A stretch of 61,503 bases of DNA, filler included, from Stramenopiles sp. TOSAG23-6 (GCA_900128565.1; 4 parts of 4 records of this genome joined end to end with filler, not necessarily neighbours in it), one strand, 5' to 3'; counted from the first letter of the whole stretch, positions 8,303 through 61,503 are shown. Notes: generated by a model not told the origin, from the letters alone. A program made the numbers and translations.

Positions 8303-9193
8303 CTAACTCTATGAAACAAACATTTTCGTTACAATTACTAGTTATAGGATTAGATAAAAATGAATATTTGTACATTGTAGAATTTATTGATTCATGTTGT
8401 CGTATATTATTTCTATTTTTTTTGGATTTTTTTTTGATATTTTTGATATTTTTGATATTTTTGATATTTTTTATTTTTTTGATATTTTTTATTTTTTTGA
8501 TTTTTGTAGTATTATGTTTATGTAGTATAGACGTTTCATTCAGTGTATCTTTGGTGGTATGTAATGTATTGTTAACAATAGAAGTAAACGTTTTATCATT
8601 TTTTACGTTGGTATCACGATTAGGATTTGTAGGGGTAGGGTTAGAATGTATGACCCATTCTGATAACTCAGGAATATATGTATTGTGGAAAAATATTTGA
8701 AATTTTTTTTTTTTTCCGTAAAAAAAAAAAAATTGTTAGGTACATAATTTCCTATGAAAAAATATTTTTAATTTTTTTTGTAAAAAAAAAACTAAAACAT
8801 ACGTTCAACAAAATCAGTTACTCGTTTTATAACAGATTTCAACGCAGACGGAGATATCATTAAAGACTTGATGGCTGTAGTTTGTGGTTGGGATGTTCCA
8901 GCAGTGACAATACCGGCTTTAAAAAGTCGATTTGATTCTTTTTTTGAGTCTTTTTTTGATGATACATTAGTTGTTAATGTACAAATAGATTCATGCTTTC
9001 GAGAACGTAAAGACCAAATATTGACACCGCATTTTTGACACATTATACGTATTCCACGACTTGGTTTGCCATTTAATGGTGAGTGATGAGCTCCAAGAGG
9101 AAGGTGGCGTGTACAAAAAGGGAAAGACTTTGTTGTTTCACAACGTGGAAGTTTACAACGTAAAGCAGTACATTGTTGATGTATGACTGACAT
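8303..9193 (-). CDS. TRM13: TRM13-like tRNA methyltransferase, 5' part only; exons 9193-8803, 8677-8303
   Basis: N-terminal CCCH-like and CHHC-like Zn-finger patterns, then RQHES...CFIELG (SAM motif I) at the next donor; remainder lost in a poly(A)/poly(T) tract. Confidence 0.6.
8678..8802 (-). mobile_element. Family intron, GT..AT, 125 nt
   Basis: Removal opens a 375-nt stop-free exon ending in FIELG. Confidence 0.85.
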
Positions 9194-15430: not shown

Positions 15431-15449
15431 GTTTCCGATCATATTTTTT

Positions 15450-27578: not shown

Positions 27579-29485
27579 TTATAAACTCAAATCTTCAAGA
27601 ATTTTTCCTGCTCTAGCTTCAACTCGAATTTTCCCACCTCCAACTTTTTGTGCGATGTCTTTCTTTCTTCTCTCATATACTTTGGAAAAATATTTCAAAA
27701 AAAAATCGTTAGGTACAGAATTTCGTACGAAAAAAAAATCGAATTTGAAAAAAAATAAAGCATACATTAATTTTCCTAACTTTTTGTAAACGCAATTCTT
27801 CTTTTTTTCGTTGTCTGGCATGCATCTTATTCATTCGAATTGTATTTGATTCCCATCTCCTGCCATTTGGCAGTCGACCCTTCCATATAAATTTTTCTAC
27901 ACTAGATGTCATTATACTGCTATTTGTGCAAAAAGGGGTTTTATTTTTTTGCCTATTATTTCTTTCCACAATGCGATTCGCTCTATTAGTAGAGCCATTA
28001 CCCAGATATGCACGATTTCTACCTAATTCAGGTAACGGTTCTGCCCATTCTGGCATTTTCCCATAACGAGATCTAATACTTCTTTTTTTTGGTTCTATAT
28101 CCATTGGTGCTCTGTATGAAGTAACTATATTACGAATGCCTGAAAATTTAGCAAATGTAGGAAGAGGGACCGATCCTTCGATGGGCTTTCTTGGATAGTC
28201 GACAGCGTTTCCAACTACTTCACCTATCGATGCAACACGTTGTTGGGAAGAGCACCCAAAATCAGGTTGTGCTATTGACCATCCTCTGCGTGAGTTTCCG
28301 TAACCTCCTCCTCGAACTCCAGCTTTGTATTTGCCTGAACACATATATTTTGGAAAAATATTTCAAAAAAATAATCGTTAGGTACAAAATTTCGTACGAA
28401 ATAAAATAGAATTTGAAAAAAAGTAAAACATACATACCGGTCATTTGTATATCATGAGCATAAGAATCATTCAACTGATTCAACCTGCTTTTCTGAAGAT
28501 TCACTGGAGCTAAATCCATCCGAAAACTTCGTTTACGACTACTCGCAGCCTCTATCGCCTTTGCGTATTCGTTATCAGTATTGTTGCGTATCGAATCTTT
28601 TGCACGTACAGCAGCCAATGATAGTAAGCCTGCAGAAGCCACAGTCGATAAACGGGATTTTTCAATTCTTGATTCTTTATTTGTATTTTTACTATTTTTT
28701 GAAGTCATCGAGATATGTGTAAACGGAATGCTACTTGTATATTCTATACTCTCACGTTGTTCAATTGTATTTGCTTCACTCGGGTATTCTTCACTAAAAG
28801 TGAGATCTGTTGAACCATTTTGTCCTTCTGAATTTTTCTGAGAAACACTAGGGGGAGAGTCAGCTCTGCGAGGATGTCTCACATCATTATATAAATTATC
28901 ATTTGTGGTATTTTTACCCCTATTGTTTTTAGTATCTGAAGTTTCTTTCGATTTTGTTCGAGCAGTAGAATCCACACTTCTTCTTATATCTCTTGAAAGT
29001 CTGTTCTTCAATTTTTTTTCAATATTTCTTTGAGGAGGTATCTTTACCTCTTGCACACTTGACTTTGCATCTGGATGAGTTATTTCCTGCTCATCATATC
29101 TCAATTTAGCCTTTTCAAATGCATTTTGACGTTCTTTCTCTGCGATTAGAGAAAAATTATACGTCTCGGGATTTATTAACTTTTTAGCTAGGCGTTTTCC
29201 ATATTCTACATTTTGGCTACTAGCTTCCGCTAATATTTGCGACGTATTCCGCCGAAGATGAGGTGGAAGAAGTTCCTCCTGAGTCATCATTTCTATGCGT
29301 TCTTTCCAACCATCTAACAAATCAGTTTCAGCTTTCTTCTTCACTTTAGATAATGTATTCGCAAGCTTCGCAGCCTCACTCTTTTGCTTTAATGCTCTTA
29401 AACTACGAAGGGAACGTTCTCTAATGGCAGTGTCTAAGGCACGCTGAGTGTTTACTGCAGCGACAGCCCCAAGAATACTCGGCAT
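27579..29485 (-). CDS. Hypothetical protein; exons 29485-28434, 28342-27766, 27674-27579
   Basis: Three ORFs join in frame after removing two family introns. Confidence 0.75.
27675..27765 (-). mobile_element. Family intron, GT..AT, 91 nt
   Basis: RKIN|ERRKK. Confidence 0.85.
28343..28433 (-). mobile_element. Family intron, GT..AT, 91 nt
   Basis: MTGM|CSGK; TATGT direct repeat. Confidence 0.85.
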
Positions 29486-29739: not shown

Positions 29740-30752
29740 TCACCAAGGGAATAACAGTGGGTTAGGGTTATCACCTTTCTTATTTTCACTAGTAACATTT
29801 CCCCCCAACAAAGGATTTACTAACCACTTTTCAAATGCACCTACTGACGCATGTGTCGTAGTTTTGTTATAGGGCATATCAGCTATTCCATTTGGTATTG
29901 ATTTATTACATTGCTCTTCAAAGTATTTACTACAAATAGAACATTCACCTCCTAAGAATTTGCCAATATTACCCTTGGCTAGGGAATCGCAAGCACCAAC
30001 CGTTTTAGAAAAAGTTAAAACACATTCATTACATATTGTATTTTGAGTTGTTGATAACTGAGTTACATTCTGGTTATATGTAGGGTTGTCTGGTGGTGCT
30101 CCCCACATTCCATTCTGCCAGCTTTGCATAGAGAGATTATGAACACTCGCCCAATTCGATATTTGCTGAATTGAATTATTTTCACCATTTTTAGTATCAG
30201 GAGAAAAACAAAGATAATCGACACTTATGTGTGCTTCTCCACATGGTTTTATATCTTTCAGAGAGTTATACCAATAAACACCAGCACTCACTGTTTTATT
30301 ACTATCTTCACCAGGACCCACAACTCTCCAATCTTGTTCAAATCCACACTCTTTCATTGTGTGTAATGATACCATGTATTTTGGAAAAATATTTCAAAAA
30401 AAAAACTAAAATTTGTTAGGTACAACATTTCGTACGAAAAATAAATTCGAAATTGAAAAAAAATCAAACATATATACACCTTCCTTTTGGCAACCCATTC
30501 GAACATTCTTCATCTTTAAATATATGCTTTCTACAAGATCCATTTTCCTGGTTGACTGGAAGTTCTGCTAAGTTATCCAAGTCCAAATTTGTTGAAGATG
30601 AATCATCAATATCCGCTACAAAAGGCATCACATGTATTGTGAAAAAATCACGAAATCATGAAAAATATCGTTAGGTACAAAATTTCGTACGAAAAAACAT
30701 AAATTCGAAATTGAAAAAAATAAAACACACATGATTACTGAAACATAAATCT
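29740..30752 (-). CDS. Hypothetical Cys-containing protein, 5'-truncated; exons 30752-30731, 30631-30474, 30373-29740
   Basis: Frame continuous after removing two family introns. Confidence 0.7.
30374..30473 (-). mobile_element. Family intron, donor position ATATGT, ends AT, 100 nt
   Basis: GRCM|VSLH; a GT..AT register shifted by 4 nt is also in frame. Confidence 0.75.
30632..30730 (-). mobile_element. Family intron, GT..AT, 99 nt
   Basis: GTGTGT donor; CATGTG direct repeat. Confidence 0.8.
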
Positions 30753-30852: not shown

Positions 30853-30906
30853 GTACGAAAATTTGTACCTAACGATTTTTTTTTGAAATATTTTTCCGAA
30901 ATACAT
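30853..30906 (+). mobile_element. Family intron, 3' half at contig start, ends AT
   Basis: Core plus CCGAAATACAT. Confidence 0.8.
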
Positions 30907-32602
30907 GGTCAAAACGGGGATTTGCTCGGTCAGTTGGAATTATGGGAAGGTCAATCCATCTCACAAGCAGTACAAGTTTTCTGTAGTAATAAAAATATCA
31001 ATGCAAAGCAATGTGCATCTATCCTATCTAATATATGCGCATCAGAATCTTTTGAATGTGGTGTTGTATGTATGTTTTAATTTTTTTGTATGAATTTTTT
31101 TTTCGTACGAAAGTTTGTACCTAACAATTTTTTTATGATTTTTTTTTGAAATATTTTTCCAAAATACATTTAGTTTAGAAGTAAAAGGTCCACCAAAACT
31201 AAAGAAACCGATTCTAGGTTTTGAAGCAGGAAATGCTATAGAAAGAGCCGCTGCTTTGAAAGAATGGGAAACACAAAAAAGAGAACCAATTGTACAGGGG
31301 GAATCCCAATTAGTACAAGGAGAAATTCTTGGTAGGTTAGAAATCCTAAGTGGTCAAGAACCATCCAAAGTAATTGCTCACTTTTGCAAACTTCATGAAC
31401 TCTCAGCTGCACATTGTAAGTGGATAATGCAAAAGGTTTGTGCAAATATTGGAGGCGGAAATGGCGTTATTTGTAATACCCATTATCAAATCTATGACCT
31501 TAATGTCACTATAGCAGATGGATCTGTGGCTAAATTTGTATTACACTTAGGTATAGAACCTATTGATGCTGCGTGGACCTTTTGTGATTCTAATGGAGTG
31601 CCAAACGATTTCGCTCACCAACTTTTAGATAATATATGCAAAAGTGAAACAAATCCTGGAGGCGTAGTTTGTTCACGACGTCGTGTTGCGCAATATTCGC
31701 ACGCTGTGGAATGGGCTTCTGGTGATGATTCAAATACTGGAGTCCTAGAATTTAAAACAGAAGTAGCTATTTATGGTGGTGAAGAACCGATTGATGCGTT
31801 GTATCGAACATTTGTTGAAAAGGGATTACCTATGAACCGTCGATGGACATCTTTATTGAAATTATGCCAAATTTTTCAATGTAAAAGAGGCGATGCTTTA
31901 CTTGCACAATTACCAGTTCAAAAGGAGGATAAGACAAAGACTCTAAAAATATATGAAGGTCACGAGCCTGTAGATCAAGTTTTTGCATTTGTGTTCAAAC
32001 ATGCTATGGAGAAGAATTTTGATATGATTATGGATACGGTGTGTAAAACAAAAAATGTTATTTGTCACCGAGCAGATGGACTACCAAAATTATTCGAATT
32101 ACCGATTGTTTATTACAATGTTGAACATAAAGTAACCTGGTATGGCACAGCTGATCACTATGAATGTCGAACAACAGAGAGAGGTGAAGAATGTCGGCAT
32201 CGCCTTTTGATACTTACTGAACAATTCTGTAACAAGTTTTTTAAGCCACCAGGAAATTGTGAAAGAGATATGATGAAAATGTTTTCTACACAATTAAAAA
32301 AAATTGATGCCAAAAACTGGAAAGGTAAACAATACTATAAAACTTTAGGGCTAAAAAAAGATGCTTCACCGTCAGCGATTGAAGAGGCCTACAGACGCGA
32401 ATCTTTACGTACAACAGCTGATAGAGATCCAGATAGAAAATGGGAATTAGAACAAGCTTACAAAACACTTGGGAATCCTGTGGATAGAGCTTTCTATGAT
32501 CAGCCTTGTAAGAAGTTTGCTGGATTAGCAGGAATGTGTGCTAAAATGACACCTGGTGGTGGAATGAATATTGAAGTCGGTCACCCAGATGCGGATGATT
32601 AA
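30907..32602 (+). CDS. Repeat-containing protein with C-terminal J-like (DnaJ) domain, 5'-truncated; exons 30907-31069, 31170-32602
   Basis: YYKTLGLKKDAS...IEEAYRR...AYKTLGNPVDRAFYD; ~65-aa Cys-bounded repeats. Confidence 0.75.
31070..31169 (+). mobile_element. Family intron, GT..AT, 100 nt
   Basis: CGVVF|SLEVK; the two nearest AGs give immediate stops. Confidence 0.8.
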
Positions 32603-37413: not shown

Positions 37414-39341
37414 ATGGGAAATGATTTTCAATGTTGCCGTCCAAGTAAAGAGGAAGATATTCCTTATTCTCTACTCGATAATCCAGATGACACCAATGGC
37501 AACTGTCACTTCTTCATTAAGCCAAAACAAAAACAGAGTAACATTTGGGATTTTGATTGTTACGACTTATCGACACCGCTCACCAAAAATGTGATTTGGC
37601 CGGATGATCCTATATTAAAAAGTCCATTTAGGAAACCATTTGATTTCCAAGTGTATCAGAATTCACCTGGAGCGAGTCAGGGAAAACTTCCAATGCCAAG
37701 GCATGGGCACAAACAATTATGGTTGTATATACGTAAAACTTCAGACAATAATGCTATTGGTGAAAATAAATATGACATTGAGAACTATGCTGACCCGGAT
37801 CAAAAACAACCAATCATCCGATCACAAACAGTCAAAGGTCAAATCTTGGGCTCAATAAGAGAAAGTGTACATTTTAACAAAAAAAATATAACCCTAACCC
37901 TAACCCTATATAATATACGAAAATTTGTACCAAACAAAAAAAAATTTTAAATATTTTTTCACATTACATGTACATATTAAAAATCTAGATGCTTCGCCTG
38001 CAACAGCAAAAGTGAGTACAACTGAAATAGATTTTGATCGTGCCACGCAATGTATTCGAGAAGCAAATAAATTAATAATTCGTGGAAATCAGGATGAAAA
38101 AGAGTATTGTAAATTCAGTAGATTTCAGATCACTTTTAAATATGTGATAGTATGTGGTGGGTCAAAAAAAAACAAAAAAACTGTTACATTTGAAGTGCAT
38201 GCAATTGGAGTTGTCGGCCAAGTTCCTTCGGCAACTTCAAATACATTCACACAACATGTAGGTTGCCATTATACTGTTGTCCAAAAAAAAAATTACTAAA
38301 AAAAAATAACCCTAACCCTAACCTAACAAAAAAATCAAAAAAAAATATTTTTTCACGATATCGGCGGTATTAGCAGGACTGCCCTGGGCATCTATTGGTA
38401 GTAACTCTAAAATAGAACCAAGTGGTACCACAGAGACTCATGACGTATCCAAAGGACGAAATTGGAATATCAGCATTACTCTTCCAATAGATGTATGTTT
38501 TCATCATTCGTTTCAATTTCGAATTTATTTTTTTTAATTTTTTTTTTAATTTTACGAAAAAAAAAATATTGCACCTAACGAATTTCAAACTTTCAAAGAT
38601 ATTTTTTTACATTGTCTCCTATTCAATCTACATTAAAGACAAGATTATCCGCAGGAGGTGGTGCAAATGCTCCACAATCTTCATCACTCGCAGATATTTT
38701 AGCTTCACGTCACGAAAAAACAATTAAAAATACTAAAAATACTAAAAATACTAAAAATACTAAAAAATCTCATAGAATTTGTGTAGCATATAAGAAAGTT
38801 GCAATACCTTGTGCAAGATTGGGAGATTCGCCAACGGAAAGAAAATTATCGTGGAATGAAAAACACACTCTAAAAGTTGACGATAATCCCGGTACCGCTT
38901 CTCAACCAAAAAATAGTAAATTATTGAGTTTTGCTGTTGGTTTCTGTATGATTAAAGCAGATTTAAATTTATATGAGTCATTACTGATTCGTCATTCAAG
39001 TGTACGTTTTGCATTTCATTTTTTTTTTTTTTTTTTTTTGGTTTTCGTACGAAATTTCGTACCTAACGAATTTCAAATTTCTGAAATATTTTTTCACAAT
39101 ATTTGGTGGTGTTATTAAACCAGATTGTTTCAGAGAAGATAACATTTTAAGGCAAAAGATATTTTCAAGTACTGGTGGTGCTCTTGAATCTGTAAGTAAT
39201 ATCAGTGTGATAAAAAATAAAACAAAACAAGAGGTAAAGAAAGCGACAAAACAAGGGGTAAAGAAAGCGACAAAACAAGGGGTAAAGAAAGCGACAAAAC
39301 AGGAGGTAAAGAAAGCGACACAAAAAATAGTAGATGTTTGA
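37414..39341 (+). CDS. Hypothetical protein (MG-start, possibly acylated), 5 exons (37414-37866, 37970-38257, 38364-38492, ~38618-39001, 39105-39341)
   Basis: Four family introns, all phase 0; MGNDFQCC start; KKATKQ(E/G)V repeats at the C-terminus. Confidence 0.7.
37867..37969 (+). mobile_element. Family intron, GT..AT, 103 nt, with internal CCCTAA repeats
   Basis: IRES|VHIK; TGTACAT direct repeat. Confidence 0.8.
38258..38363 (+). mobile_element. Divergent family intron, GT..CG, 106 nt
   Basis: CAT|GTAGGT donor; AAATATTTTTTCACGATATCG end; core replaced by AACCCTAACCCTAACCTAAC. Confidence 0.65.
38493..38617 (+). mobile_element. Divergent family intron, GT..CT (acceptor uncertain by 3-6 nt)
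   Basis: GAT|GTATGT donor, GCACCTAAC; no in-frame AG at the consensus position. Confidence 0.6.
39002..39104 (+). mobile_element. Family intron, GT..TT, 103 nt
   Basis: RHSS|GGVIK. Confidence 0.8.
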
Positions 39342-39728: not shown

Positions 39729-41096
<1,368 letters not shown>

Positions 41097-41775: not shown

Positions 41776-42140
41776 TGAGAAACTAAACTAATATATCAAG
41801 CAACTTTATATACACATGAAAGCATGTTATTTAGCTTATATATCTAATTTACGCAGTTCACTGTGAACAATGGATGATAACTGTAGGTGAAATATTAAAA
41901 AAATCTAATTCTCACTCTCTCGTAAAGTCATGATGTCGACATCGTTGAACAACAACACAAGGTTCTCACACAAGCGAATCGAGATTCTCAGATTCGAAGA
42001 ATAAATAATTGTGTCTTCATTTTCCCTTCATTTTGATGGCTCGATCTATCAAACTCAAAATTGGAAATTTGGAATACTAAATTAATCGCACAAGTTCGAA
42101 TCTATCTAAATCGGGCACTAAAATCTGATTCAAATAGGTA

Positions 42141-42629: not shown

Positions 42630-43029
42630 ATTAAACTGCTCAACTTTGATTTCTGCAATTTTTTCACCTTGGCTTTTTATACCAATAAAATATAGCAATT
42701 TAAACTTTTCTACTTTGATTGTTATAGCAATCGTGTAATAGTCAACTCATTGAATATTATTTCTATAGAGAAGTATGTAATTTACGATAATTGATAATTT
42801 TGTAATTTTTTTTCTATTATTATATATTATTTTTTTACGACTCAAAATTAGCAGGTTTGTGTGTGGGTGTGTCGAAGATTTTTTCTTTTTCATGGTTCAG
42901 AATCTCAGATTCTTTTTCAAATAGACACGTCGACGTTGCTACAGCTTTTGGTTGAAGTCTCGTACTACTACATTATCTGTTACGTTTGGTGCGTATACTA
43001 AATACCTTGTTCAATTGTTTGAATCAAAA

Positions 43030-46000
43030 ATGATAAAAGGCATATATCTGCAAAGAATAGATGGTTCTGAAATATACTTACCTCATATCCACCACAGTCC
43101 TGGAGATCTGGTCAAGAAACTCAAAGTAAACTTGATTAAGCTAGGACACGCACATGCAGGACACACTCAACTTACTTTTGGACGAAAATCTCTTGAAGAT
43201 GACAAAACACTTGGATTTTATGGTTTACAATCTGGTAGTGTCATTGCAGTAGAATCCACACATACATCATCACATTTGGATGTGTGTATCCATTCTAAAT
43301 CGTATGAATTAACCAGACTCAAAAAAGAATGTAACAATTTACGACAAAAGATTGACGATATGTCACTCCTATATGACTCCCAGTTAAAGCAAAAGAATGA
43401 AAATGTAAAGTCTTTTTCTGAACGCCATAAAGAAATACAAATAACAAAAATATGCACGCGCACGATATTTAGAAAATCCGTTGATAACTTTGCGTATGGG
43501 TTAAATATAAAAAATACAACAAAAGAAAATAACAAATATAAAACTGTAACTGTATACAACGGAAATCTTGTAAATGAGTTTTATATGTACAAAACTTTAG
43601 ATAAAAAGTCACAAGATGAACGTTCATACCACAGTAAAACATTTGATGAAATAGGTAAAGAGGCGATTTTATTTTGGGATCTTCTTTGTGACCGTGTCTA
43701 TTTTTATCAAACTAAAGATACAAACGATAAAGAGAATTCGAAAAAAAATTCAATTTGGCCTTCTCAGGCTCTTCTATCAGAGGCTTTTCAATATAACCAG
43801 AAGAAGCTTATTCTTAGACTATATGATCCATCCAAGTATAAAATAAGAGAAAGTAAAAGTTCCGAGAGAATAAACTATCAAAACTATAATAGATCAAATA
43901 AAACCCAAAAGAAAAATACTTCCGACAACATCAATATATTAAAAATTGCAGATAATTTTAATAAAGAAAATGCAAGCCTTGGATTACTTTTAGCAAATGA
44001 TGAGAATGAAAACGTCGTTAAAAGCAGTACAAATGCGTTAAATGGTAATACTAATAATTTGAAAACTAAAGAAACAAACAATGATGATGTACGTTTGATA
44101 TGAATTTCTAATTTAAGTTTTTTTTCATACGAAATTTCGTACCTAACGATTTTTTTAACTATTTTTTTTTTTTCACAATACATGTCCATAGTGAAATTGA
44201 AATGGCTCAAAAAAGCTTTACTCGACAGAAACGTCGTCGTATTAGAGTTGGACTCTGTACAATGACAACTGCTTTTATTTTTGTGATTATTTTACTCTGG
44301 AATGACGTATGTTTTATTTTTTTTTTAATGAATTTTTTTTTGTACGAAATTTTGTACCTAACAATTTTTTTTAGATTTTTTTTTGAAATATTTTTCCAAA
44401 ATACATGGACATAACATTTCTAGTTCTTCTGGGGTAAATAATGATTTTATCAATAAGCTTAAAAGTAAAAGTATTGACATTGATTATACAAAGGAAAAGG
44501 AAGAAATTTGGGAATGGATAGATAACAGTAAAACTATCGAGAATGGAAATTTAGTCACTTTTGACAACGAAAATTATAAAAAATGGACTTTATTTGGTCC
44601 TGTGTCATATACACAACATAGAGGTCAAGGTTTACTTAGTTGTATTACTGAAAAGGCTTTTGATGCTACAGAGAACCCTAATTGTCGATTATGTTCAGTG
44701 TACTGCCAATCAGAATTTGGAACGAATCAGTCGGTAAGTATGTTTTTTTTTTTCAAATTCGATTTTTTTTCATACGAAATTACGTACCTAACGATTTTTT
44801 TTTGAAATATTTTTCCAAAATACAACGTCTTTTGGTGCTTGGTGGTTAACACCTTTTACATTTGGAGGAAAGAAGACTTTGTCATTAGAACAAGAAACTA
44901 TTGGTATTATCGCAGACTATGGTTCAAAAGGCTTTCGTAGATCATCTTTTCCTGGGCAACTGCCTTTAGAAAAAGTGTATCATGATTCAGTATGGGAACA
45001 AATGAAGGTAGATTGGCTTGATGAGTACACCCGAGCAATATTTATTACTGCTTCTACATATCATCCAGCTCTCAATTTGTTAACAAAAATACAATCTGGT
45101 ATTGAAATGTCTGTGGGTGGAAATTCAGTATCAAACTTAAGTATTGATTCAGTTTTTTTAGATGATAGAAGTTCAAAAATCAAAATTATTTCATTTCTTC
45201 TTTTACCCATTGTAGCTATTTCACTAATCATGTATGTTTTATTTTTTTTCAAATTTGATTTTTTTTCGTACGAAATTTTGTACCTAACGATTTTTTTTTC
45301 AAATATTTTTCACTGCTCATAGATGTGATGCACTTGTTAGAAATCATTGGCTTACGATATCGTTACGTTTCGTCATATTTTTGGAATACGGCAATATGGC
45401 ACAACTTTGCAATTTATATCTTTATTTCGGTCTATGTATTTCATGAATTAAAAATCGATTCAGATCTTAAAATTCTTCAAGGAGATTGTGTTAAAATTCT
45501 TCTTAGACAAAATTACTTCAATGAAATTCTTAATGACCAAGAAAAGATCATTTACAATGAAATTCTGACAGAAAATGGACCTAAAACAACCTTGAATACA
45601 AGTATTTGGTCCCAAAAAGCACAATTAAAATGGGAAATTTGGTGGAACGAATCTAGAATAAAGGATTTTGATACGAATCTGCAAATGACTATTAACTCGT
45701 ATGAAAGGACTATCTCAGAACATAAACTAAATATGAATAATAATCTTACAGGAATTTCTGTAGCAAGACAAGTACAAGTACTTTTACTATCAATTTCATT
45801 CTATTTGATATTTATGAAATTGTACAGATTTCTCTTTAGAAGAAAAATATTGAAAAAAACAAATATTGAAAAATCAAAGTCGAAAAATGATTTCAACCGC
45901 GATATTTCAATGTATTTTATAATCGTACCGATACTATTTATATTACTACTAGTTGTACTCGCCGTATCTTTTATTTTGTGGATTGATATCAATGGACATA

Positions 46001-46080
46001 ATACGTACTTTAAAAATTTTTCAGGAATTATTATCGGTACATTGATAGGATTGTGTAGTAGTAAAGGGGGTATGGATTAT
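43030..46080 (+). CDS. Ubiquitin-like domain plus polycystin (PKD/TRPP)-like membrane protein, 3'-truncated; exons 43030-44088, 44184-44306, 44407-44737, 44826-45231, 45321-46080
   Basis: LTFGRKSLEDDKTLGFYGL (Ubl); WLDEYTRAIFITASTYHPALNLL (polycystin motif); several TM helices; phases consistent. Confidence 0.7.
44089..44183 (+). mobile_element. Family intron, GT..AT, 95 nt
   Basis: NDD|VHSE; ATGT direct repeat. Confidence 0.85.
44307..44406 (+). mobile_element. Family intron, GT..AT, 100 nt
   Basis: WND|GHNI. Confidence 0.85.
44738..44825 (+). mobile_element. Family intron, GT..AA, 88 nt
   Basis: AA|GTATGT...TACAA|; QSVT|SFGAWW. Confidence 0.8.
45232..45320 (+). mobile_element. Family intron, GT..AT, 89 nt
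   Basis: SLII|DVMHL; the AG 2 nt downstream is out of frame. Confidence 0.85.
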
Positions 46081-46130
46081 GTATGTTTTATTTTTTTTTC
46101 AATTTCGAATTTATTTTTCGTACGAAATTT
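46081..46130 (+). mobile_element. Family intron, 5' half at contig end
   Basis: AT|GTATGT plus TTTCGTACGAAATTT. Confidence 0.8.
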
Positions 46131-46230
46131 NNNNNNNNNNNNNNNNNNNNNNNNNNNNNNNNNNNNNNNNNNNNTTAATTAATTAANNNNNNNNNNNNNN
46201 NNNNNNNNNNNNNNNNNNNNNNNNNNNNNN
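46131..46230. other. Artificial contig spacer
   Basis: N-run with TTAATTAATTAA. Confidence 0.95.
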
Positions 46231-49200
46231 TATAATTCCTGCTCTTCCAAGAAGACTAAATCAGCGTGATTTTGTGAAGGCTATAAAATGGACTCGTAAA
46301 ATTGTACAAGATGAAGGACATGTTATGCCTCAGTTACTTCATATATGGAGAATCATTACTCGCCATCCTCGTCTTTTTTACCCTTATCGATCTGAGTTTA
46401 TTTTGCATATTATTTCATCCTTAAACCGATTTGGTCTCTCTCACAAAGTATCTAATGCAAATAGACGTCTCGCCTTAGATCTTGTACATCTCATTATAGC
46501 ATGGGAAATGCGACGAAGGCTTCGATTCGATAATCATTCGCGTCGGAAAAGAAGTCATGATCGTGCGAATGAACCACTACGGAAAAATCCAAAGTTTAAT
46601 TCTCTTAGAAGATGGGGTTTGTCATCGAAAAAGGCTAAAAGATCTAAGATTATTGTTGGTAAAGAAGTAGTAGGTGCAAAAACGAAAGATTCTACTGAAG
46701 GGTCAGTAGTTGTAGAAAGTAGTGTAAAACAGTCTGTTGGTGTTGTTGCTGGTGTATTAGAAACATTGAGAAAACATAAACGTAAGCATGTACCTGGTAG
46801 TGCTTTTATTAAATCTATTCGAGCTTCGATGCTTTTAAATAAAAAGACAGCAACATCTAAGCGGAAAGTAAAAGTTAAGGGAAAGCAGCGTTTGAATGTA
46901 AAAAGTCAATCAAAAGTGAATTCTCGTAATAATGCTTCACAAGTCAAGAAATCTCAGAAAACTTCCGAAAAAAATGCTCGACAAATGGAAAAGATTCCAC
47001 AGCAGAATAGTGATGCTGTCGATAATTCTCTGAATAATAGTAACAAAACTCTCTCTCATGAAGCTCCATCTGGTCCCACAGAATCTATTAAGAATGAAGG
47101 TGATTCCGCAAAAACTGTTGATTCCCCTTCGAAGAAAATTCCAAATAATGTTCCAACTAAAGAAACTTCGAAGACACCAGTGACATCACAACAACAGTCA
47201 AAACAAGGCGTTAAAGTAGTTTCAGCATCAGTTGCTCATGCACTCGCAGTTGATGTGTTTGAACCGAATTCTAAAATGGCTCAAATGTTGGTAGATTTTC
47301 TTGTTAGGGTTTCACTTGTCACAGTGACATCTTCAACTGGTGCACCTGATATTGTTGAGAGAAGTTTGAGACTTTTACGAATTGCGTTGATATTATGGAG
47401 TAAAACGAATATTACTGTTTCTGATCTTGATAAAGTCTTACCCGCTGTAAAATCTCAAGAAAAAAATGCACAGAAAGTCAGTGGTTCTGTACGTGCATTG
47501 AATGACCTGAAGTTAGCAAGGGCTAGGGTTGCAGCTGCAAAATTGAAGAAAGACCAAAATGCCCTTATTCTTGCAAAACAAGCTGAAGCGAAGGCAAGAG
47601 CTAAAGTCAATTTGTCACAGGCCATGACTCCTTCTTCAGGAAAAAAATCGGAAACAAAGCGTCCTTCGCGTCTTCTATTGTCTACTATATTAACTCTGTT
47701 GAACGCAGTAGTGGATGCTGGTCGCAACCCATTTGAAAAAAATGCCACTGTACGTGCCGAGAGAATCCTTTCATATTGTTTTCTTACGGATTCACCAAAG
47801 GTCCAAATTCAATTGCGAAAGCTCATCAGTCAAATGATGAATAAGTTTAGTCATCGTGATCAAATTTTAGACACTGAGAGAAGTATATCATTTAGTGATC
47901 AATTACGAATCAGTATTTCATCTTCATTGAAGGTGCATAGTCGATTAGGTGCTACTACTAATTCTTCAATTGGTGGCCTTGATTGTGATTTTAGTTTATT
48001 GAATAATTCTCAATTTTATTTTAAATCATTTGTTGCGACAGACGCGTTGCTATTTTTATGTCACGAAATACCAAGACAGTGTGATCATTATGCTGACGCT
48101 CTTGTAAAATTAGCTGTACAACTTACTACTGGTCATTTAATGCATATACGAGCTCTGAGAGTGAATGAGAGAAAAAAAATGTATACTGTAAAGGAAAGTC
48201 CTAGTATAAGAAGCTCACCAGCTAAGAAAGGGAAAAGTCGAAAAGGAGAAATCAGTAAAGCCTCAGGAAGAAAAACTGGATCAAAAAAGAGTAAGTTGTC
48301 ATCCCCTAAACATAGTTCGAAATCAGCGAATAAGTTGAAGAAGCCTATATTGAAAGTGGAGCCAATCTTACAGAAACATCCGACGTTAGTTCTTGCTACT
48401 TTGAAAAATACGATAATTTTACTAGGAAATCGAATTCTGAGACTACCAAAGCAGAGGTCTGAATTTTTTTCAGTGTTGTTTGCAATTTTACGAGATTCGA
48501 GTGACTTAAGTTTATTGAATATAGTATTTGATTTAGTAGATGGTTGGCTTGCAGATCAATCATTGATGGGTCAATCAGAATTAAAAATGTTTTCACGAAA
48601 TGTACGTAAAGAGAATACCCCACCTATTGATGTGGTACAGGATGAAAAAAAAACTACTGAAGAAAGTGGAAGCATTGTCGTTGGTGTTGTAGAACCTGTA
48701 TCATCTCAACCAATTGCTAAAAATAGAAGTGATGAAAAGAGTGCAATCAAAATGGGTTCAGACAGCTCATTGAAGAGCAATATCAAGCCTTGTAAAGCAA
48801 TGAAGTGTAATAAGATTATTGTACCTCTGAACTCGTCAGAAAAAACTGCGTTTGTCCGTATAATGCGGGGTGCGATAAAGCATGCTTTGGTGCCTCCTGA
48901 TACAACAAGCAAACACGCGAAGAGATCGAAAAGTAACTCAAAATCAACGAAAAAGTTGCAAGGAATTGCAGGTGTTGAAGCAAAATTAAATGATAGAAAT
49001 GTTGATGTATCAATTAGGCGTGCTAAAATAATGAAGCGATACTTGAGTATAGTTAGGCACTTACTCGATATGGGACACGGTCCTCTACATCATCCAAAAT
49101 CTCTTCATTTTGGTGGTAAACTTGCTACGTATCTTCGGGATGCTTTAGTGCTTGGTTTGTTATCACCTGACGAAGAACAACGCAAAATATTTTTTAGTGA

Positions 49201-52200
49201 GTGGATGCAAAGTCTCGAGTGTAGGGAGACTTCCCGAGCTGCTGCTGCATTAGCTAGTATTACCTCTGTATGTAACACGCTGCGATGTGCGGGCTTGAAA
49301 GAAAATATACCTTCAGTAAATGAAAAACCACTTCCAGCATTTTCAAAACTTGGTCATAGAATGGAGTTGTTATTCTCGGAGGATTGGAGCCCAGTATCTT
49401 CTATATATTTTCTAGCTCCTATTTTGGATGCGATACTTTCACTAGTTGTATCAAATGGAGTTTGTATTTCTTTTTCTTCTCGAGGTGTAGATTCAAATGA
49501 ACTTTTAGTTAATAAAGTTGGGAATGTTTGGACCCCCTCCTTTCCTAGTAAGGTATTGAAAACATCAGCCAATGATCCTATCAGTGTGAGAAGTAGAAGA
49601 AACTGTCAATCAATTATTTCTAAAAATGAAGAGTATATACGCCGAGCTTCGGATTTTTCGATGGAATATTTGTTAATGCCTCTTCGAAACCTTATGTATG
49701 GGTCAAATGAATTAGCTCATGTTGTGTGTTCAGTTTTGTTACCAAATGTCTGGAGAGTATTCCCAACACCAATTCGTGTTGCCATGTTATCTCCAATCTC
49801 GCGTTTTCTCACTGATGTCTGTCATTCAAGTCAACCTCTTGGCCAGCGAAATGTTATTCAATCTGTTTTGGAAGGTTTGTATGTTTTATTTTTTTTCAAA
49901 TTCGAAGTTTTTTTTTCGTACGAAAGTTTGTACCTAACGATTTTTTTTTCAAATATTTTTCCAAAATACTTGTTACATGCGCCGTTTCCAATGTGTATTC
50001 CGACAGAAGTTCTTTCACACGTTGCTCATGAACACCAGTGTTGGTACATTGCAATAACATTGATTGAACGTAAACTTTCTCGCACAAAAATTTCTGCTGA
50101 ACGTGACATGTATGTTTTATTTTTTTTCAAATTCCATTTTTTTTTCATAGGAAATTTTGTACCTAACAATTTGTTTTTGAAATATTTTTCCAAAATACAT
50201 GTGCCGTGATGCTCTGGAGAAGATATATACTTCTCTAAATATGGATGATGTTGCTTTGGGCTTACGTAGGCGTTTTTGTCAGATTCCCGATTCTCTGCTA
50301 GCTCTTACATTAGAGACATATGGCTATTGGGATGATGCGCAAGATTCATACTATCGAACGATCCGTCAGCTTCATTCAGGTCAAATTCCTCACAATATCG
50401 TGGATCCATTTGAACTTCGTCTTTGGGAAGAACGATGGGTGGAATGTTCGAAACAATTAGGACATTGGGAAATGCTCAGTACGTTAGCTACTGTTACATG
50501 TGATACACAGTTACAATTGGATTGTGCTGAGAAGCTAGCGGATTGGAATGTTGTAAAGTCTATTTGTGGTGGTGGCCGAAATTCGATGCTACTCTCCGAG
50601 GATGGTGGTGGTGTTCATGCACCTCTTTATAGTAAATTGGCCCTAGAAGGTTGGGATGTGAAATATACTGCACGTAATTTGATAACGAGTATTTATGCTA
50701 CTTTACATACTAGTGATGGATGTGCCAATGAATTACGAAGTCTTCATCATGCGAGAAATCTTCTACTCGAAGACTGGCAGAAACTCCCGACTGTTGTATC
50801 TAATACCCATGTCCCGCTTCTGCAACAATGTCATATGTTAGTGGAATGTGATGAATCGATGAATATCATTTCAAAGGTGTCATTAGCTCAGCACACGGAT
50901 GAAGTTCCAGATCTCAAGAATATCTTATCCACTTGGCGCGAGAGACTTCCTAATAAATGGGAGAGAGTTTCAATATGGGACGATTTATTAACGTTTCGTA
51001 GTCATACATTCACATCAATAATGAAAAACTTTTATTATGAAGACGCCCTTCGTGCTCGATTACAAGATGCGCCATGGACGGTGATCAAACTTGCCCAGGT
51101 TGCTCGACGTCAAGGTCTTTGTAATATGGCGCTTCATGTATTAGGTAAATTATTTAGAGTTTCTACAATGGATGTTCAAGATGCCTTCGAAAAATTGCGG
51201 GAACAAATTCTTATATGCTACAATGCAGCAGGTTGCGAGGACTCCAATCGAAGTACTGATCTTGATATCGCTACTGCGGGATTAAATACTATTAATAGTA
51301 CAAATCTTGAGTGGTTTTCGGCCAATCAAAAGTCTGAATTATTTCGCTTAAAAGGTTTGTTTCTTTCTGCACTTGGTGACAATGATCAAGCAAATATTCA
51401 GTTTTCGCGTGCCATGCAGATTGACAATAAACACAGCAAATGTTGGTTGTCTTGGGGTCGTTATTTAGATAGTGTATATAAAAAATCAAAAGGCGACAAG
51501 AATATTAATGTAGCAGCACAAGCTGTATGTTGTTATTTACAAGCTGTAAATCACAAGACTGAAGGTGCCCGACTTGTCTTAGCACGTGTATTGTGGTTAA
51601 TGAGTAATGACGATGAGAAAGGTACAATAAAAGGTACATTTCAAAAATATGGAGATAGAATGCCTCTATGGATCTGGATTATTTGGATTCCGCAATTATT
51701 AACAGCTCTTGTTCGCCCAGAGGCTCCGAAAGTTCGCTCAATTATGCTTCATTTGGCAACTGTTTATCCACAATCTTTGTATTATACTCTCCGTGCATTT
51801 TTACTAGAAAAAAGAGAAATTCCTAAAGATAAAAATGATGAAAAAGAAAAGAAGGAATCTATTGACGCCAAACCTAAAGATGGGAAGGAATCGTCTAGCG
51901 CACAGCTGAAGCCTATGGACATTGATTCTAAAGATGAGAAAAATGCACCAACGAAGTCAAGCCCTTCAGAAAAACCTACTCGTATCGACTCTGTGAAATA
52001 TGCGGAAGAGCTTGTGGCATACATTCGAAGAGCACATCCTGCTCTTGCTTCTGAAATCGAAAGAATGCTTGAAGAATTAATTGTACGCTTTAAGCCATCT
52101 CCAGAAGAAGAACTGGAAAGTGCCGTACATGCTCTTCTCGCTAAATGCTTTCAATTACCTCACTCAGCTGACAACAAGAGTATTCCCGTGTCTTTGTGTA

Positions 52201-55583: not shown

Positions 55584-57480
55584 ATGTCGCATCTGTCGGG
55601 AAAAGGTCGTCGACGGAGAAACACCCGTGATAATAATTTTCTCTTTTCCATCGAGAAGAGATTACACAGACTGTCATTGAAGAATAAAATTGATCTCAGT
55701 ACATCGCAAAAGAAAGTGAATATTGAAGACCATTCTCTTTCGAAGGAAGATCAAAATATTCGTTTGCCTGACGTCAAAGTTTGTGGTGAAATTATTCGAC
55801 TAATTTGTATTTTGAAACGCTTTGCTTTGAAAAACATAACTTGCCACGATAATGTCCGTAAACCCAACAGCCAAGAAAACTCAACCGACACTTCATACGA
55901 TATCGATACTATAGAATACCCCCCAATGATTGATTTTATGAAAGGCCTGATGAATTTTCAACAATCTGCATCCAACGCAAATTTATCTTTTGAAGGTTTA
56001 ACTTGTCAATATCTCAAGAAATTGAATTTATCTTGGTCAGATTTAATGAACGATTTGGAAGACTCTAGGACTGAGAAATTTATAACATATATTTTATCAT
56101 TGAGCCAAGAAAATACCAATGAATTAATTGATCGTGCTGTTTACGAAGTTATTGATGTTTTGTACGTCTTTCCACATACATTTTAATTTTTTTTTTTGTT
56201 AGAAAATTTGTACCTAACAATTTTTTATTGTTTTTGAAATGTTTTTCACAATTTGCGGGCGCCAACATTAAAAATGCGATAAATTCTTCAAATTTCGAGA
56301 GTGAGAAAACAAATAAGGTCATTGATACGTGTTCAACTTCAAGGTTGAGGGAGAAATTTTCTACAGAAAATTTAACTGTGTACGTTTTCAAAATTGAATT
56401 TTTATCTTTTTTTTTCATACGAAATTTTGTACCTAACGAAAAATAAATCAAATTTTTGAAATAGTTTTTTCAATACATGAGCGGTCTGTACAAGTATAGT
56501 AAAAAACATGCTAGTGGAAGTGTAACAAGATTACTTGGTTTCAAAAGTATCGGATTGTTCAAGTATGCAGGTAACATGTATGTTTGTCATCATACATTTA
56601 AAATTTCAAATTTATTTTTTTTCATACGAAATTTTGTACCTAAACAAAAATTTGTTTTTTTAAAGTATCTACGTTTTCATCATTCATTTCAAATTTCAAA
56701 TTTTATTTTTTTGTACAAAAAATTATGTACCCAACGTTTTTTTTAGATGATGTTTATCATTATACACTTAAAGTTTAAAATTTATTTTATGTACCTATTC
56801 CTACAATTTCTACATTTTCAAGTTTTGTTAGGGTTAGGGTTAACCCTAACCTAGCCCTAACCCTACATTTTCAAGTTTTGTACTATCCCTAATAAGTTTC
56901 AAACTTTTAATATATTTGTTCAAAGTCCAGAATATGGAACTATAGAACTCATTGTATTGAGCATACTCAAGGTAGTAAAGTTAAATGGACAATCGGTAAA
57001 ACAACTTCGGTGATAGATGTTGAATTTGGTGATCGCAGCATTGGAAAAATCATCATTCTAGGTGGATTAGTGCCATGTATGTTTTTTTTTTTTTTTACAA
57101 AAAAATCAAATTTATTTTTCGTACGAAATTTTGTACCTAACCATTTTTATTTTTTTGAAATATTTTTCCAAAATACATGTATGGTACTTTCTGCTATTGA
57201 AACACACCCAGGTCCAGATACTAGAAATGGAATTCAGTTAGATTTTAGAGTCTTGAGTGATTTAGAAATAATGTCTTTAGAGAAGAACTCTCAGATGAGT
57301 ACAAAAAAAAAAGCCAGTATTTTGAAAAGTTTAAAGAGAATTCAAGTAGTGGACCGGGTTCGTTTCCATTTCTTTTTGAGTAGAGATAAAAAGGGCATAC
57401 ATTTACTGGGAAACAGGCTCTCAGATGATCATAATATTACTAGTGAAGATGCATTATCAGAATTATTCATCCGCAAATAA
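55584..57480 (+). CDS. Hypothetical protein, 5 exons (55584-56161, ~56257-56379, 56479-56577, 56931-57076, 57179-57480)
   Basis: Four family introns with consistent phases. Confidence 0.65.
56162..56256 (+). mobile_element. Family intron, GT..GC (or GT..TT ending 56253)
   Basis: Core present; both acceptors in frame, neither AG. Confidence 0.7.
56380..56478 (+). mobile_element. Family intron, GT..AT, 99 nt
   Basis: NLTV|SGLYK. Confidence 0.8.
56578..56930 (+). mobile_element. Compound family intron, GT..AG, 353 nt, with several decayed cores and an inverted telomeric tract
   Basis: AGNI|IWNYRT; core variants at ~56625, ~56713 and ~56790. Confidence 0.65.
57077..57178 (+). mobile_element. 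Family intron, GT..AT, 102 nt (3n, stop-free)
   Basis: CATGTATG 8-nt direct repeat; LVPC|MVLS. Confidence 0.85.
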
Positions 57481-57606: not shown

Positions 57607-60061
57607 TTATAGCAAGGATTGTTCCTCATATTTTAGCATTTCACTATCGTACTCCAAAGCTATCACGTCTAATTCATGTTGAGACATTTGATAATATCCC
57701 TTAAAATAAGGATGTCTTTTTATATCACGCACAGTTGGAATATAATCAATAAATTCATTATTGATAAGTGTTGGATGCTTCGTTTCGCTTTCTTTGCAAT
57801 TAATAAAATTTTCAGAGAAGTCACATGCACTGAGCATGTATTATGAAAACATATTTCAAAAATTTGAAATTTGTTAGGTACGGTATTTGATATAAATAAA
57901 TTTGATATAAATAAATTTGAAACAATAAATTTGAAACAATAAATTTGAAACAATAAATTTGAAATTCAATATGTAAACGTACATAGATCCAAGACTACTA
58001 GATACCTTTGCATTCTCTATATTCACTACTACTTTTTTTTTCCACTCTGTTGCACTATCAGCAAATGAATCCATTTCTTTTTCATCTTTTGTTTCAATCT
58101 GGTCATTTATTCTAGAGTCTTCTTCATATTTCATCATCTCAACTTCATTTGCTCCTGTATTAGCCCATTGGCTCATGAACTTCATACGCCGAGATGCTTC
58201 GACTTCTTTTCTCTGCTTCTTTATTCGTGCTAAGTACTCATATCGCCAACGTGGCATAAAAGAAATCTCAATGTCAACTATTCCAGTATTCGTCGCTTGG
58301 AAAATGGGCGATACACCTTCACATGACCAGGCCCCGGATGAAGGATATATAGGGCATTGTTGAATACTTCCTGGTTGTATTTTTTCACCACCATTATCAT
58401 CCTGGTCATGGCATTGCATGACCCAAACCCACTCACCTACCTTGCGTGGAACGTTATTCAACGGTTTTGATTTTTGCATATGCTCATTGATATATTTGTC
58501 TACTGAATGTGGTGTTAAGTCAAGTCGGAAAAAATCACCTTTATGAAATGTTATACCTGAAAGAAGCATTTCCAATGATATAGCACAACTCTGAGGCCTT
58601 GCCCAATTTCCTAAACCTAATAAATCCCTTAGTATCCCTCCAAGATCTGCAGCTAGTTTCTGATTTCGGCGTTGTAAGACATGTACTGCCTCATTCCGAT
58701 TATGAACGTCGGAGATTCCGACACCAGATCCAGCGACGAGATTTTCACCCCAAGGCATATTTGCTAGTTGAACACATTTTCCACTGTCAGATACTACTAT
58801 ATTATCCAGCGTTAATGACCCATTTAACTGAAAAGTGCTATACCTCTCAATATCAGAAAGTGAATTAGTTATCTCAGAGGCCCAGTAACGAAATAATATA
58901 CTTTTTTCAGTCATTGACCTTTCAAATTTATCGTTTTCATCCGCGTAATTTATGCGTTGTAAAACATCAACCATTGAAGACATTGTACTGTTACTATATA
59001 CTAAAACTCGTGAAGATTTAGCAATATTATAATAATTTCCCATACATTTGCTTACGTGGCGTGACATGAACCATGAAAAAATATTTCAAAACTTTAAAAT
59101 TTGTTAATTACAAAATTTGGTATAAAAATATATGAAATTTGAAATGAATGATTATAACGTACATTATCATTTGTCTATTTGCAGCCCATGTTCTTTCTAT
59201 CGCATTTCTTATTGGAGTAGGAACTCCTGCATTAGGTAATACTACACAAAAAAATCCATTTTTAAAATTATTTCCTCCGTCATTTTCTCGTTGTACTTCG
59301 TTGTTTTCAAGTGTCCTACTTTTATTCTTAGATTCTCTGGGTTTAACCACACACACACGTACACCAAATTGATTCATACTACCACATGATAAACCTACTT
59401 TATCGCAGAATACATTTGTAGATTTGTTCATAACTCGTGAAAGAACATTACGCGATATGGAGTTTTGATAACGATATATTGTAGATTCGATTATGTTGGC
59501 ATGATTTCTTTGGTACTCAAATGAGCTTATTGAAATATCAGGATCGATCACTAAAGCATTCCAAAAAAGTAGTTGAAGAGCAGCTTGTGAATTTTGAAGG
59601 TAGTAATTAACTGTTGCAGTATTCAATGTGGCACTTGTAGTTTGTAGTGACAGTCGTAAATCCTCAATTGTTTGAATGGCTTGAAGTGCACTATTTCGCC
59701 CAAATGAAACTGGCTTTAATTTTTGATTTCTACAGTATTTGTATAATTCAATAGGGAGTTTTCTTATGTTTCTCTTCAACTGTAGTGCCGTTTCATCTTC
59801 TTCGAGTAAATTCTGAACAAGTTTGATTTGAAATGTAGTTACATCTAAACCAACTGTAGAATGTGCTTTTTCTTTCTGACCGAAGGCTCCAGAGTTTTTT
59901 TCATGTTCTTTCCAAATACGTTCTAATAAGGGCAGATCATTCTGAGTAATCAAGCCGCGATCTGTTCCATCTTGTAATAGCGATTCCCATTGTGTACTGC
60001 TAGTGATACAGCCATCAGGAGACACCCGCAGAAACATCTGTTTGTATTCGTCGCCATTCAT
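57607..60061 (-). CDS. Hypothetical protein with a degenerate protein-kinase-like C-terminal region; exons 60061-59163, 59065-57983, 57835-57607
   Basis: LTLDNIVV...VQLANMPWG and PTVRDIKRHPYF resemble kinase C-lobe motifs without HRD/DFG. Confidence 0.6.
57836..57982 (-). mobile_element. Family intron, GT..AT, 147 nt, with an internal 14-15-bp tandem repeat
   Basis: LGSM|LSAC; AATAAATTTGA(A/T)A repeated ~5 times. Confidence 0.8.
59066..59162 (-). mobile_element. Divergent family intron, GT..AT, 97 nt
   Basis: QMIM|SRHV; core variant TATACCAAATTTTGTAATTAAC. Confidence 0.8.
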
Positions 60062-60396: not shown

Positions 60397-61503
60397 ATGC
60401 CGAAAATACTGTTACGATTGATACTTCTTCTTCTACTTTTTGGTAACTCTTCTTCGAGATTAAAAGAAGATGTTTGCCGAGGCTTAGCTCTTAGCGGTGG
60501 AGGTGCGAAAGGTGCTTACGAAGCAGGTGTGTTACTAGGCCTAACTTCATTGTTACCAGTAAATGAAACAAAATGGGACGTTGTTACTGGGATTTCAGCT
60601 GGTTCCTTGCTCACGTCGTTTATGGCAAAGTACCCCATTGGCAAAGAAGCAGAATGTGCAAAAGCTATGGTACAATTAACCTCAACAATGGATCGAAGCA
60701 CGATTTTTCAAAATTGGTGGCCATTTGGTCCTCTTCAAGGACTACTTGTTGAACGTGGCTTGTACGACACTGCACCTGAACGTGAGTTCCTCAATGGCGA
60801 GATAGGGAGTGGAATTATACCACCTTCTCTGGGAGGACGTAGAATAGTTATTGGAGCAACGTCTGATACTTCTGGCATTCTTCAAACTTGGAATGAAACT
60901 GCCACAACTTCTGAGTTGATTGAGGGAGTCATGGCTAGTAGCGCAATTCCTGGAGTCTTTCCAGCACAAGAAATAACAAATGGTCCTCACAAGGGTGATT
61001 TTTTTTCAGATGGTGGTGTTTTATATGGTGTAAACATTGTTGATGCAATTTTACGATGTCGAGAAATTGTGGGTGATGAAGCTGATAAGTCTATCACTAT
61101 GTACGTTTTCATCCTTCATTTCATTTCAATTTTTTTTTACTATGAAAATTTGTACCTAACAAAAACATTAATATTTTTTCACAAAACATTGATATTATCT
61201 TGACTGACGGTGCGTTTCTATTTAATTTGCCTAACAAACAAGCTGAGAAATTGCACTCAATAGGAGTACTTTTAAGATCATTTGATATAATGCGATATAG
61301 CAATTCAATGGAAGATGTACATTTTCATCATTGATTTCAATTCGTTTTTTTTTCATACGAAATTTTGTAATTAACAAAAAAAACTCAAAAAAAATATTTT
61401 TCACAAAATATGTAGATTATGCTCGTTTTGCTTATCCAAACGTGAACTTCAGGTATTTGATATACCCGTCGGTCCCTCTAAAAGGGCCTTTAGATTTCGA
61501 TCC
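60397..61503 (+). CDS. Secreted patatin-like phospholipase, 3'-truncated; exons 60397-61100, 61190-61316, 61412-end
   Basis: LALSGGGAKGAYEAG, GISAG, ASSAIPGVFP, DGG motifs; signal peptide. Confidence 0.9.
61101..61189 (+). mobile_element. Family intron, GT..AT, 89 nt
   Basis: KSITI|DIILT. Confidence 0.85.
61317..61411 (+). mobile_element. Family intron, GT..AT, 95 nt
   Basis: SMED|VDYARFAYPNVNFRY; the AG 4 nt downstream leads to a stop; ATGTA direct repeat. Confidence 0.85.

Follow-up and report, generated by a model that had tools for sequence, protein, structure and literature searches.

Short introner-like introns of a marine stramenopile lack an AG acceptor and often end with a repeat of the preceding exon bases

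The 61,503-nucleotide (nt) stretch of DNA analyzed here, referred to as the window, derives from Stramenopiles sp. TOSAG23-6 (GCA_900128565.1) and carries a family of short introns that resemble one another and are scattered over unrelated genes. Both ends were resolved for 28 copies, located in about 13 genes on both strands (Table 1), and such a set of many near-identical introns in unrelated genes of a single genome is what defines introners. As claimed in an earlier prediction made from the window alone (hereafter the original prediction), these introns do without an AG acceptor, AG being the last dinucleotide in 0 of the 28 copies, and the two bases that precede the donor frequently reappear as the last two bases of the intron. 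The best supported reading, held with moderate confidence at a probability of about 0.5, is that target-site duplication upon insertion gave rise to this repeated dinucleotide.

Copies were searched with a 9-nt branch-site motif combined with an upstream ACGAAA core, which returned 34 sites. Left out of the 28 were two copies cut by linkers (46081-46130 and 30853-30906) and three copies with an unplaced 3' end (donors at 2258 and 56578 on the plus strand, and at 8302 on the minus strand). All 28 are in the sense orientation relative to the host reading frame, and most are about 90 to 150 bases long. The family follows the pattern XY^GTAYGT…TACCTAAC…AATAY-X'Y'^G, where carets mark the boundaries between exon and intron, XY the last two bases of the exon and X'Y' those of the intron; aligned copies read GTAYGTTTTA…TTTTCGTACGAAATTTTGTACCTAAC…GAAATATTTTTC(C/A)A(A/C)AATA(C/T), followed by two more bases. 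The putative branch site, TACCTAAC, lies inside a conserved CGTACGAAATTTTGTACCTAAC core, and in 19 of 26 copies no further branch-like motif follows it. The branch motif is separated from the 3' end by 33-58 nt in 23 of 26 copies; the distances in the remaining three are 18, 25 and 66 nt. Copies are 0.46 to 0.94 identical to the family consensus, 15 of them at 0.80 or above. Measured against canonical U2-type introns, the family has the GT donor (26/28) and the branch site, and the terminal AG is missing throughout (0/28).

The internal organization of the copies calls for a few further observations. Directly 5' of the branch site, the family core (e.g., 49915-49926) contains a perfect 12-nt palindrome, TTTCGTACGAAA; with the inner TTCAAA/TTTGAA pairs added, the element has a loose foldback organization. 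Three copies on the minus strand have a non-consensus donor, namely ATATGT (30468-30473), GAACGT (12086-12091) and GTGTGT (30725-30730), and their frame still fits; they may be dead copies or sequencing errors, or may reflect tolerance at the 5' site too. Two composite introns, at 12449-12637 (minus strand) and 56578 to about 56920 (plus strand), hold at least two family cores each and look like internal duplications or stacked decayed copies, not clean nested insertions.

The position of the 3' boundary was assessed using the reading frame. In 25 copies, the 3' end was put 2 nt past the conserved TAY, blind to frame, and the resulting GT…TAY+2 length fits the flanking open frames in 24 of them, where chance would give 1 in 3 (the exception is the copy at 38493). 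The fit is 27/28 overall when the three decayed-tail copies, which were placed by frame, are counted. AT forms the last two bases in 21/28 introns, and introns ending with TT, AC, CG, TC or GC likewise fit the frame. An AG located between the branch motif and the 3' boundary is passed over in 8/26 copies, and the first AG 3' of the boundary is frame-compatible in only 6/26, which is the chance level. In metatranscriptome and metagenome reads compared with 34556-46130, other copies mostly cease to resemble the window at …TACAT (44406) or …TACATG (44407), and begin to do so at AT^GT (45230, 46079).

Protein homology provided a second view of the boundary. The C-terminal two thirds of TRRAP/Tra1 are encoded at 46231-53939, with oomycetes as the best named homologues (36-43% identity). 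The Gly codon GGT just before 49879, which encodes the Gly of LEG^L, corresponds to Gly in 79 of 83 covering homologues (Ser in 2, Ala in 2, Asp in 0), so that the intron must be 49879-49971 or an equivalent cut within the TTGT repeat. A GT…AT register located 4 nt upstream was ruled out for this intron because the Gly would become Asp. For the exon 3' of 50200, alignment to a homologue already begins with the third exon residue, before the first AG is reached. Together, the conserved Gly and this alignment show that non-AG acceptors are real for at least two TRRAP introns. Neither junction gains or loses more than about one residue relative to the homologues. The scarless removal put forward in the original prediction is well supported as a precise, frame-preserving one, with no scar detectable at the TRRAP junctions against the homologues.

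We found that exon positions -2/-1 equal the last two intron bases in 19/28 of our own copies (19/30 in the original prediction), and that the exonic dinucleotide is AT in 19/28 (21/30). The 19 matches comprise 17 AT/AT, one AA/AA (44738-44825) and one TT/TT (49879-49971), and the two non-AT cases are exactly as first described. The nine mismatches are GT/AT (twice), AC/AT (twice), GT/TT, AT/AC, AT/CG, AG/TC and TT/GC; six of the nine differ by one base, and the difference at 44307 (GAC/GAT) is synonymous. All five longer junction repeats that had been reported were also recovered: CATGTATG (57077), ATATATG (12091/11967), TGTACAT (37867), ACATGT (50110) and CATGTG (30730/30632). The mismatching copies sit in poorly conserved genes; the GT…NN register and the one shifted by 2 nt predict different residues there, e.g., His versus Tyr at 8802, Met versus Thr at 5764 and Ser versus Ile at 39002.

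Because AT dominates both positions, we used a shuffled-pairing control in which each 5' junction was paired with the 3' junction of another copy (100,000 shuffles), the same logic as that of the locus-specific match test outlined in the methods of PMC9860276, as excerpted. Two-base matches were observed 19 times among the 28 copies compared to a shuffled mean of 14.5 (p = 0.003). The mean junction repeat was 3.29 nt versus 2.63 nt (p = 6e-5), and repeats of at least 6 nt numbered 6 versus 1.5 (p = 0.00025). The covariation that the original prediction expected once AT is excluded was detected within the window, with 2 non-AT matches versus 0.25 (p = 0.02), but it comes from just two copies. 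The 24 motif-defined copies gave the same picture, with p = 0.007 for two-base matches, 0.014 for non-AT matches, 0.0002 for the mean junction repeat and 0.0002 for repeats of at least 6 nt. Furthermore, matches were found in 12 of the 13 copies closest to the consensus and in 7 of the 15 most diverged ones (Mann-Whitney p = 0.02), which fits identity at insertion followed by decay. In the flanks, G starts exon 2 in 21/28 copies and the base preceding AT is T or C in 18/26.

These observations suggest the following scenario. One family of short mobile introns (introners) would have invaded host genes, each copy supplying its own strong 5' splice site (GTAYGT) and branch site (TACCTAAC), and supplying no AG. 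The preferred insertion target would be yAT^G. The excised segment would extend from the G of GT to exactly 2 nt past the conserved …AATAY end of the element, these last 2 nt being most likely one copy of a short target duplication generated by the insertion. Loss of the element along with one copy of the repeat would then restore the original coding sequence. With regard to the earlier claim that insertion at an AT site duplicates at least 2 bp, the copy-specific junction repeats do exceed the shuffled expectation, while the duplication itself is what we infer from them. As judged from DNA sequence, the repeats most likely come from target duplication and not from microhomology or selection, the spliceosome would carry out the removal, and the cut register is probably GT…NN rather than one shifted within the repeat. 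More tentatively, and with considerable doubt on our part, the spliceosome might no longer read the last two intron bases; the 3' cut would be set by …AATAY, or by a 4-bp GUAU/AUAC helix joining both ends of the intron, plus 2 nt, and any duplicated 2 bp would then act as the acceptor.

Several results weigh against target duplication. Among the matches, only AA/AA and TT/TT are informative, and both were singled out once the sequence had been inspected; an alternative reading of the AA copy is GTAAGT (44734)…AAAAT (44821), a GT…AT intron of the same length. Nine of the 28 copies mismatch. Two TAY-decayed copies (45232-45320 and 59162-59066) still appear to end with CAT^, which weakly suggests that AT itself is a selected splice signal; this evidence is weak because their 3' ends were picked by frame and by AT itself. 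The flank (T or C)-AT^G is non-palindromic, unlike a symmetric transposase target, and this asymmetric yAT^G context resembles the consensus of a splice site rather than the target of a transposase. As to terminal inverted repeats, there is just GTAT/ATAC. This 4-bp repeat, noted in the original prediction, is present, but at both ends in only 10/28 copies, and only by counting the exonic (C)AT and AT(G) does it extend to 6-7 bp; a clear terminal inverted repeat is taken as 6 nt or more in an excerpt of PMC9860276. Terminal pairing appeared in some folds, but only one of six folded copies was more stable than its shuffles. No transposase domain was found in the 20 open reading frames of the window that were scanned. 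Finally, neither an empty allele nor a spliced RNA junction was seen among the 15 joints listed (520 more being unlisted) when three metatranscriptome runs and one metagenome run were compared with 34556-46130. Reads over this region are dominated by other family copies, and the joints listed are copy-to-copy chimeras. In the metagenome, the summed word depth reaches 24,103 in bins that contain family copies, versus about 1.5-15 in most single-copy bins, although summed depth over family bins is not a copy number.

Some of these points are also accommodated by a different explanation, possible though in our view rather unlikely, in which AT is simply the acceptor of this lineage and is borne by the element (GT…yAT), which would insert at yAT^G without duplication, by reverse splicing or as a blunt event. 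The match would then result from two independent AT preferences, and AA/AA and TT/TT from coincidence or later mutation. AT does end 21/28 introns and precede 19/28 donors, G opens exon 2 in 21/28, and the pattern is like the canonical AG^GT…AG^G with T for the final G. The asymmetric flank preference, the alternative GT…AT reading of the AA copy and the apparent retention of AT in two copies without …TAY, whose ends were partly chosen for AT, all point the same way, and, according to an excerpt of PMC9860276, some introner families have neither target duplications nor inverted repeats. However, the TT/TT intron of TRRAP cannot be re-read as GT…AT (Gly, conserved in 79/83, to Asp), the introns ending with TT, AC, CG, TC and GC fit the frame, and the copy-specific matching beats the shuffles (p = 0.003 to 6e-5).

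The two other explanations that we considered move the boundary or deny it. If both cuts were made 2 nt upstream, introns would read XY-GTAYGT…ATAC, mostly AT…AC, with the conserved …AY as their 3' end. This is improbable: the 5' end would be variable (AT 19, GT 3, AC 2, TT 2, AA 1 and AG 1 of 28), the two decayed copies would end with TC, and the donor is unlike that of U12-type introns, as is the distance from the branch motif to the end (33-58 nt in 23/26), even though the mRNA and the frame would be the same wherever XY = X'Y' (19/28) and the 3' end would mostly be AC or AT (position -3: C 19 and T 7 of 26; position -4: A 23 of 26). The shift also places the invariant GTAYGT 2 nt inside the intron, at odds with the usual reading of a 5' site. 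It is scarcely credible, finally, that the copies are ordinary GT-AG introns with an AG located elsewhere, or that they are dead insertions lying in pseudogenes or in misassembled contigs from single cells. The frame fits the non-AG end in 27/28 copies and the next AG in 6/26, any AG acceptor would take away residues that TRRAP homology requires, and the family recurs with its single-copy flanks in seawater metagenomes from studies beyond those of the best DNA matches. What speaks for such artifacts is that the window is made of linker-joined contigs with breaks inside family copies, that two donors are defective (ATATGT and GAACGT), and that the frame fails once.

Searches for relatives of the family in public metagenome contigs returned 0 matches to a 20-nt family core, and a gapped family pattern hit 17 loci in public contigs, none of which is a real copy. 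Matches of a 15-base degenerate pattern in viral and prokaryote contigs (phage, named bacteria) were taken as chance and were unscreened. No transcript-derived or intron-free protein from the window exons was found, the proteins covered being of 70-226 and 97-310 residues.

Table 1. Copies of the intron family in the window. Carets mark boundaries between exon and intron; dinucleotide pairs give the exon end followed by the intron end.
Coordinates	Strand	Feature	Exon/intron end	Details
246..351	-	family intron	AT/AT	
5664..5764	-	family intron	AT/AC	mismatch
8678..8802	-	family intron	AC/AT	mismatch
11967..12091	-	family intron, GAACGT replaces donor	AT/AT	junction repeat ATATATG
12261..12374	-	family intron	AT/AT	junction repeat ATATGT
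12449..12637	-	composite copy, two branch-site cores	AT/AT	
13042..13190	-	copy with donor CAG^GTGAGT, tail …CACAATATTC	AG/TC	mismatch
27675..27765	-	family intron	AT/AT	
28343..28433	-	family intron, tail …ATATAT	AT/AT	
30374..30473	-	family intron, ATATGT replaces donor	AT/AT	
30632..30730	-	family intron, donor GTGTGT	AT/AT	junction repeat CATGTG
30853..30906	+	3' part of copy, cut by linker		ends …AATACAT
31070..31169	+	family intron	AT/AT	
37867..37969	+	diverged copy, donor GTACAT	GT/AT	mismatch; junction repeat TGTACAT
38258..38363	+	strongly diverged copy (GTAGGT…CACGATATCG)	AT/CG	mismatch
38493..38612	+	copy failing the frame at the TAY+2 3' end, sole exception		would be in frame with a length of 119 or 122 nt
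39002..39104	+	family intron	GT/TT	mismatch
44089..44183	+	family intron, GTACGT subtype	AT/AT	
44307..44406	+	family intron	AC/AT	mismatch; GAC/GAT synonymous at junction
44738..44825	+	family intron, 88 nt	AA/AA	ggtAA^GTATGT…AATACAA^cg; frame fits
45232..45320	+	decayed 3' motif (…GCTCAT^ag)		ends AT; repeat TCAT; 3' end set by frame
46081..46130	+	5' part of copy, cut by linker		exon ends AT
49879..49971	+	family intron in TRRAP, 93 nt	TT/TT	ggtTT^GTATGT…AATACTT^gt; repeat TTGT
50110..50200	+	family intron in TRRAP, 91 nt	AT/AT	junction repeat ACATGT
56162..56256	+	diverged, 3' end ambiguous	TT/GC or TT/TT	TT/GC with end at 56256; TT/TT with end at 56253
56380..56478	+	family intron	GT/AT	mismatch
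57077..57178	+	family intron	AT/AT	junction repeat CATGTATG (8 nt)
57836..57982	-	family intron, 147 nt	AT/AT	
59066..59162	-	diverged copy (…GGTTCAT^g)	AT/AT	ends AT; 3' end set by frame
61101..61189	+	family intron, GTACGT subtype	AT/AT	

The window is AT-rich (GC 0.27-0.46) and eukaryotic, and its source is a marine AT-rich eukaryote; the same sequence also occurs in small DNA runs of one organism, in seawater metagenomes and in metatranscriptomes. Besides TRRAP, its genes encode an alpha-tubulin (intronless), a PP1-type phosphatase, an RFC subunit, an RNase PH subunit, a patatin and a polycystin-domain protein. Three 100-nt linkers (N44-TTAATTAATTAA-N44) at 15331-15430, 30753-30852 and 46131-46230 show that the window is a chain of separate contigs. 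Family copies adjoin two of the three linkers (30632-30730 and 30853-30906 at 30.8 kb; 46081-46130 at 46.1 kb), and the truncated copies beside them indicate that the assembly broke there at family repeats. Since a linker separates them, the polycystin-like gene and TRRAP are not neighbours, and gene order across linkers is not real.

Other features of the window were recorded in passing. A single open frame of about 3,690 codons spans 15431-26471 (plus strand), where the GC content of the window is highest (0.35-0.46). The alpha-tubulin gene (39729-41096, plus strand) has a very high summed depth and many variant letters in polyA metatranscriptomes, a pattern suggestive of cross-mapping by reads of other organisms. 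The window has short telomere-like (CCCTAA)n arrays at 17 sites versus 0.13 expected, e.g., at 37892-37909, 38310-38321, 56828-56866, 11540-11551 and 36466-36477; several of them sit inside diverged family introns, where they give CTAAC branch-like motifs. A different repeat at 36466-37019, outside long open frames, has its own inverted arms (gtacgaaaatccGTACCTAAG … CTTAGGTACggattt) and a GTACCTAA motif in common with the intron family. An Rfam search of the window gave no match.

Mobile intron-creating elements are generally assumed to require an AG, either one of their own or one from the target. A large family that combines a textbook donor and branch site with no AG would mean that 3' splice-site recognition can relax alone, and a spliceosome that ignores the last two bases would let a mobile intron colonize coding sequence without AG. 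It would also add an independent case, beside Fritillaria and Amoebophrya, linking intron invasion to a tolerant spliceosome. In practice, most intron-containing genes of uncultured marine protists like this one would be wrongly annotated by gene callers that require GT-AG.

Several known systems bear comparison with the family. U12-type AT-AC introns have an ATATCC-type donor and a branch site near the 3' end. A cut shifted by 2 nt would make most copies AT…AC, as in U12-type or U2-type AT-AC introns, but there is no ATATCC donor here, the site being (AT)GTAYGT, and in 23/26 copies 33-58 nt separate the branch motif from the end; a U12-type AT-AC intron was rejected on these two grounds. In ciliates, TA-bounded internal eliminated sequences are excised at the DNA level and are devoid of splice signals. 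They resemble the family in the 2-bp direct repeat around a short AT-rich insert, of which one copy is left after precise removal. Unlike them, each copy here has a donor and a branch site, and copies are found in DNA and RNA libraries alike.

A full-text search for introners with GT-AT ends returned no paper. The supplementary tables of PMC9860276 and PMC12130899, which list introner families from marine single-cell and metagenome assemblies, may already catalogue the present one. In the available excerpts of the literature on uncultured stramenopile single-cell genomes, we found no remark on splice sites.

The introner elements of Amoebophrya, as described in excerpts of PMC7789003, are also from a marine protist and show direct repeats of a few nt (3-5 nt) overlapping exon/intron borders as well as variable non-canonical ends. 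They further have hairpin-forming inverted repeats of 8-20 nt and very diverse splice motifs, U1 being apparently missing, whereas the present family has a 4-bp inverted repeat and a textbook U1/U6 donor. In the tunicate Fritillaria borealis, non-canonical introns derive from miniature inverted-repeat transposable elements (Henriet et al. 2019, as summarized in an excerpt of PMC11282704), and their transposon origin was inferred from target duplications and inverted repeats. As here, acceptors are AC or AT and the exonic motif that precedes the intron is repeated at its end; however, the Fritillaria donors are also non-GT (AG-AC, AG-AT), while the donor and branch site described here are canonical and the acceptor alone departs. 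Relative to both systems, the family shares the direct repeats at the borders and the non-AG acceptor, and it has neither 8-20 nt inverted repeats (4 bp) nor non-GT donors (GT in 26/28).

In the family of Chrysochromulina sp. and in IE1 of Micromonas pusilla, introners carry the 5' splice site and the target-site duplication gives the 3' site, as described in excerpts of PMC9860276 and PMC11282704. Like the present family, these are short repeated families in unrelated genes, with a donor from the element and an intron end that repeats the exon bases located before the donor, so that splicing takes out the element and one repeat and leaves the mRNA unchanged. According to the same excerpts, the duplication there provides AG, the introns are GT/GC-AG and duplications are 3-4 bp or longer. 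In contrast, the present family repeats about 2 bp (up to 8), most often AT, and neither creates nor relies on an AG. On the target-duplication reading, the family would extend the known transposon-derived introns (introners) in which the duplicated target provides the acceptor, and it is set apart by its textbook donor and branch site combined with a complete lack of AG.

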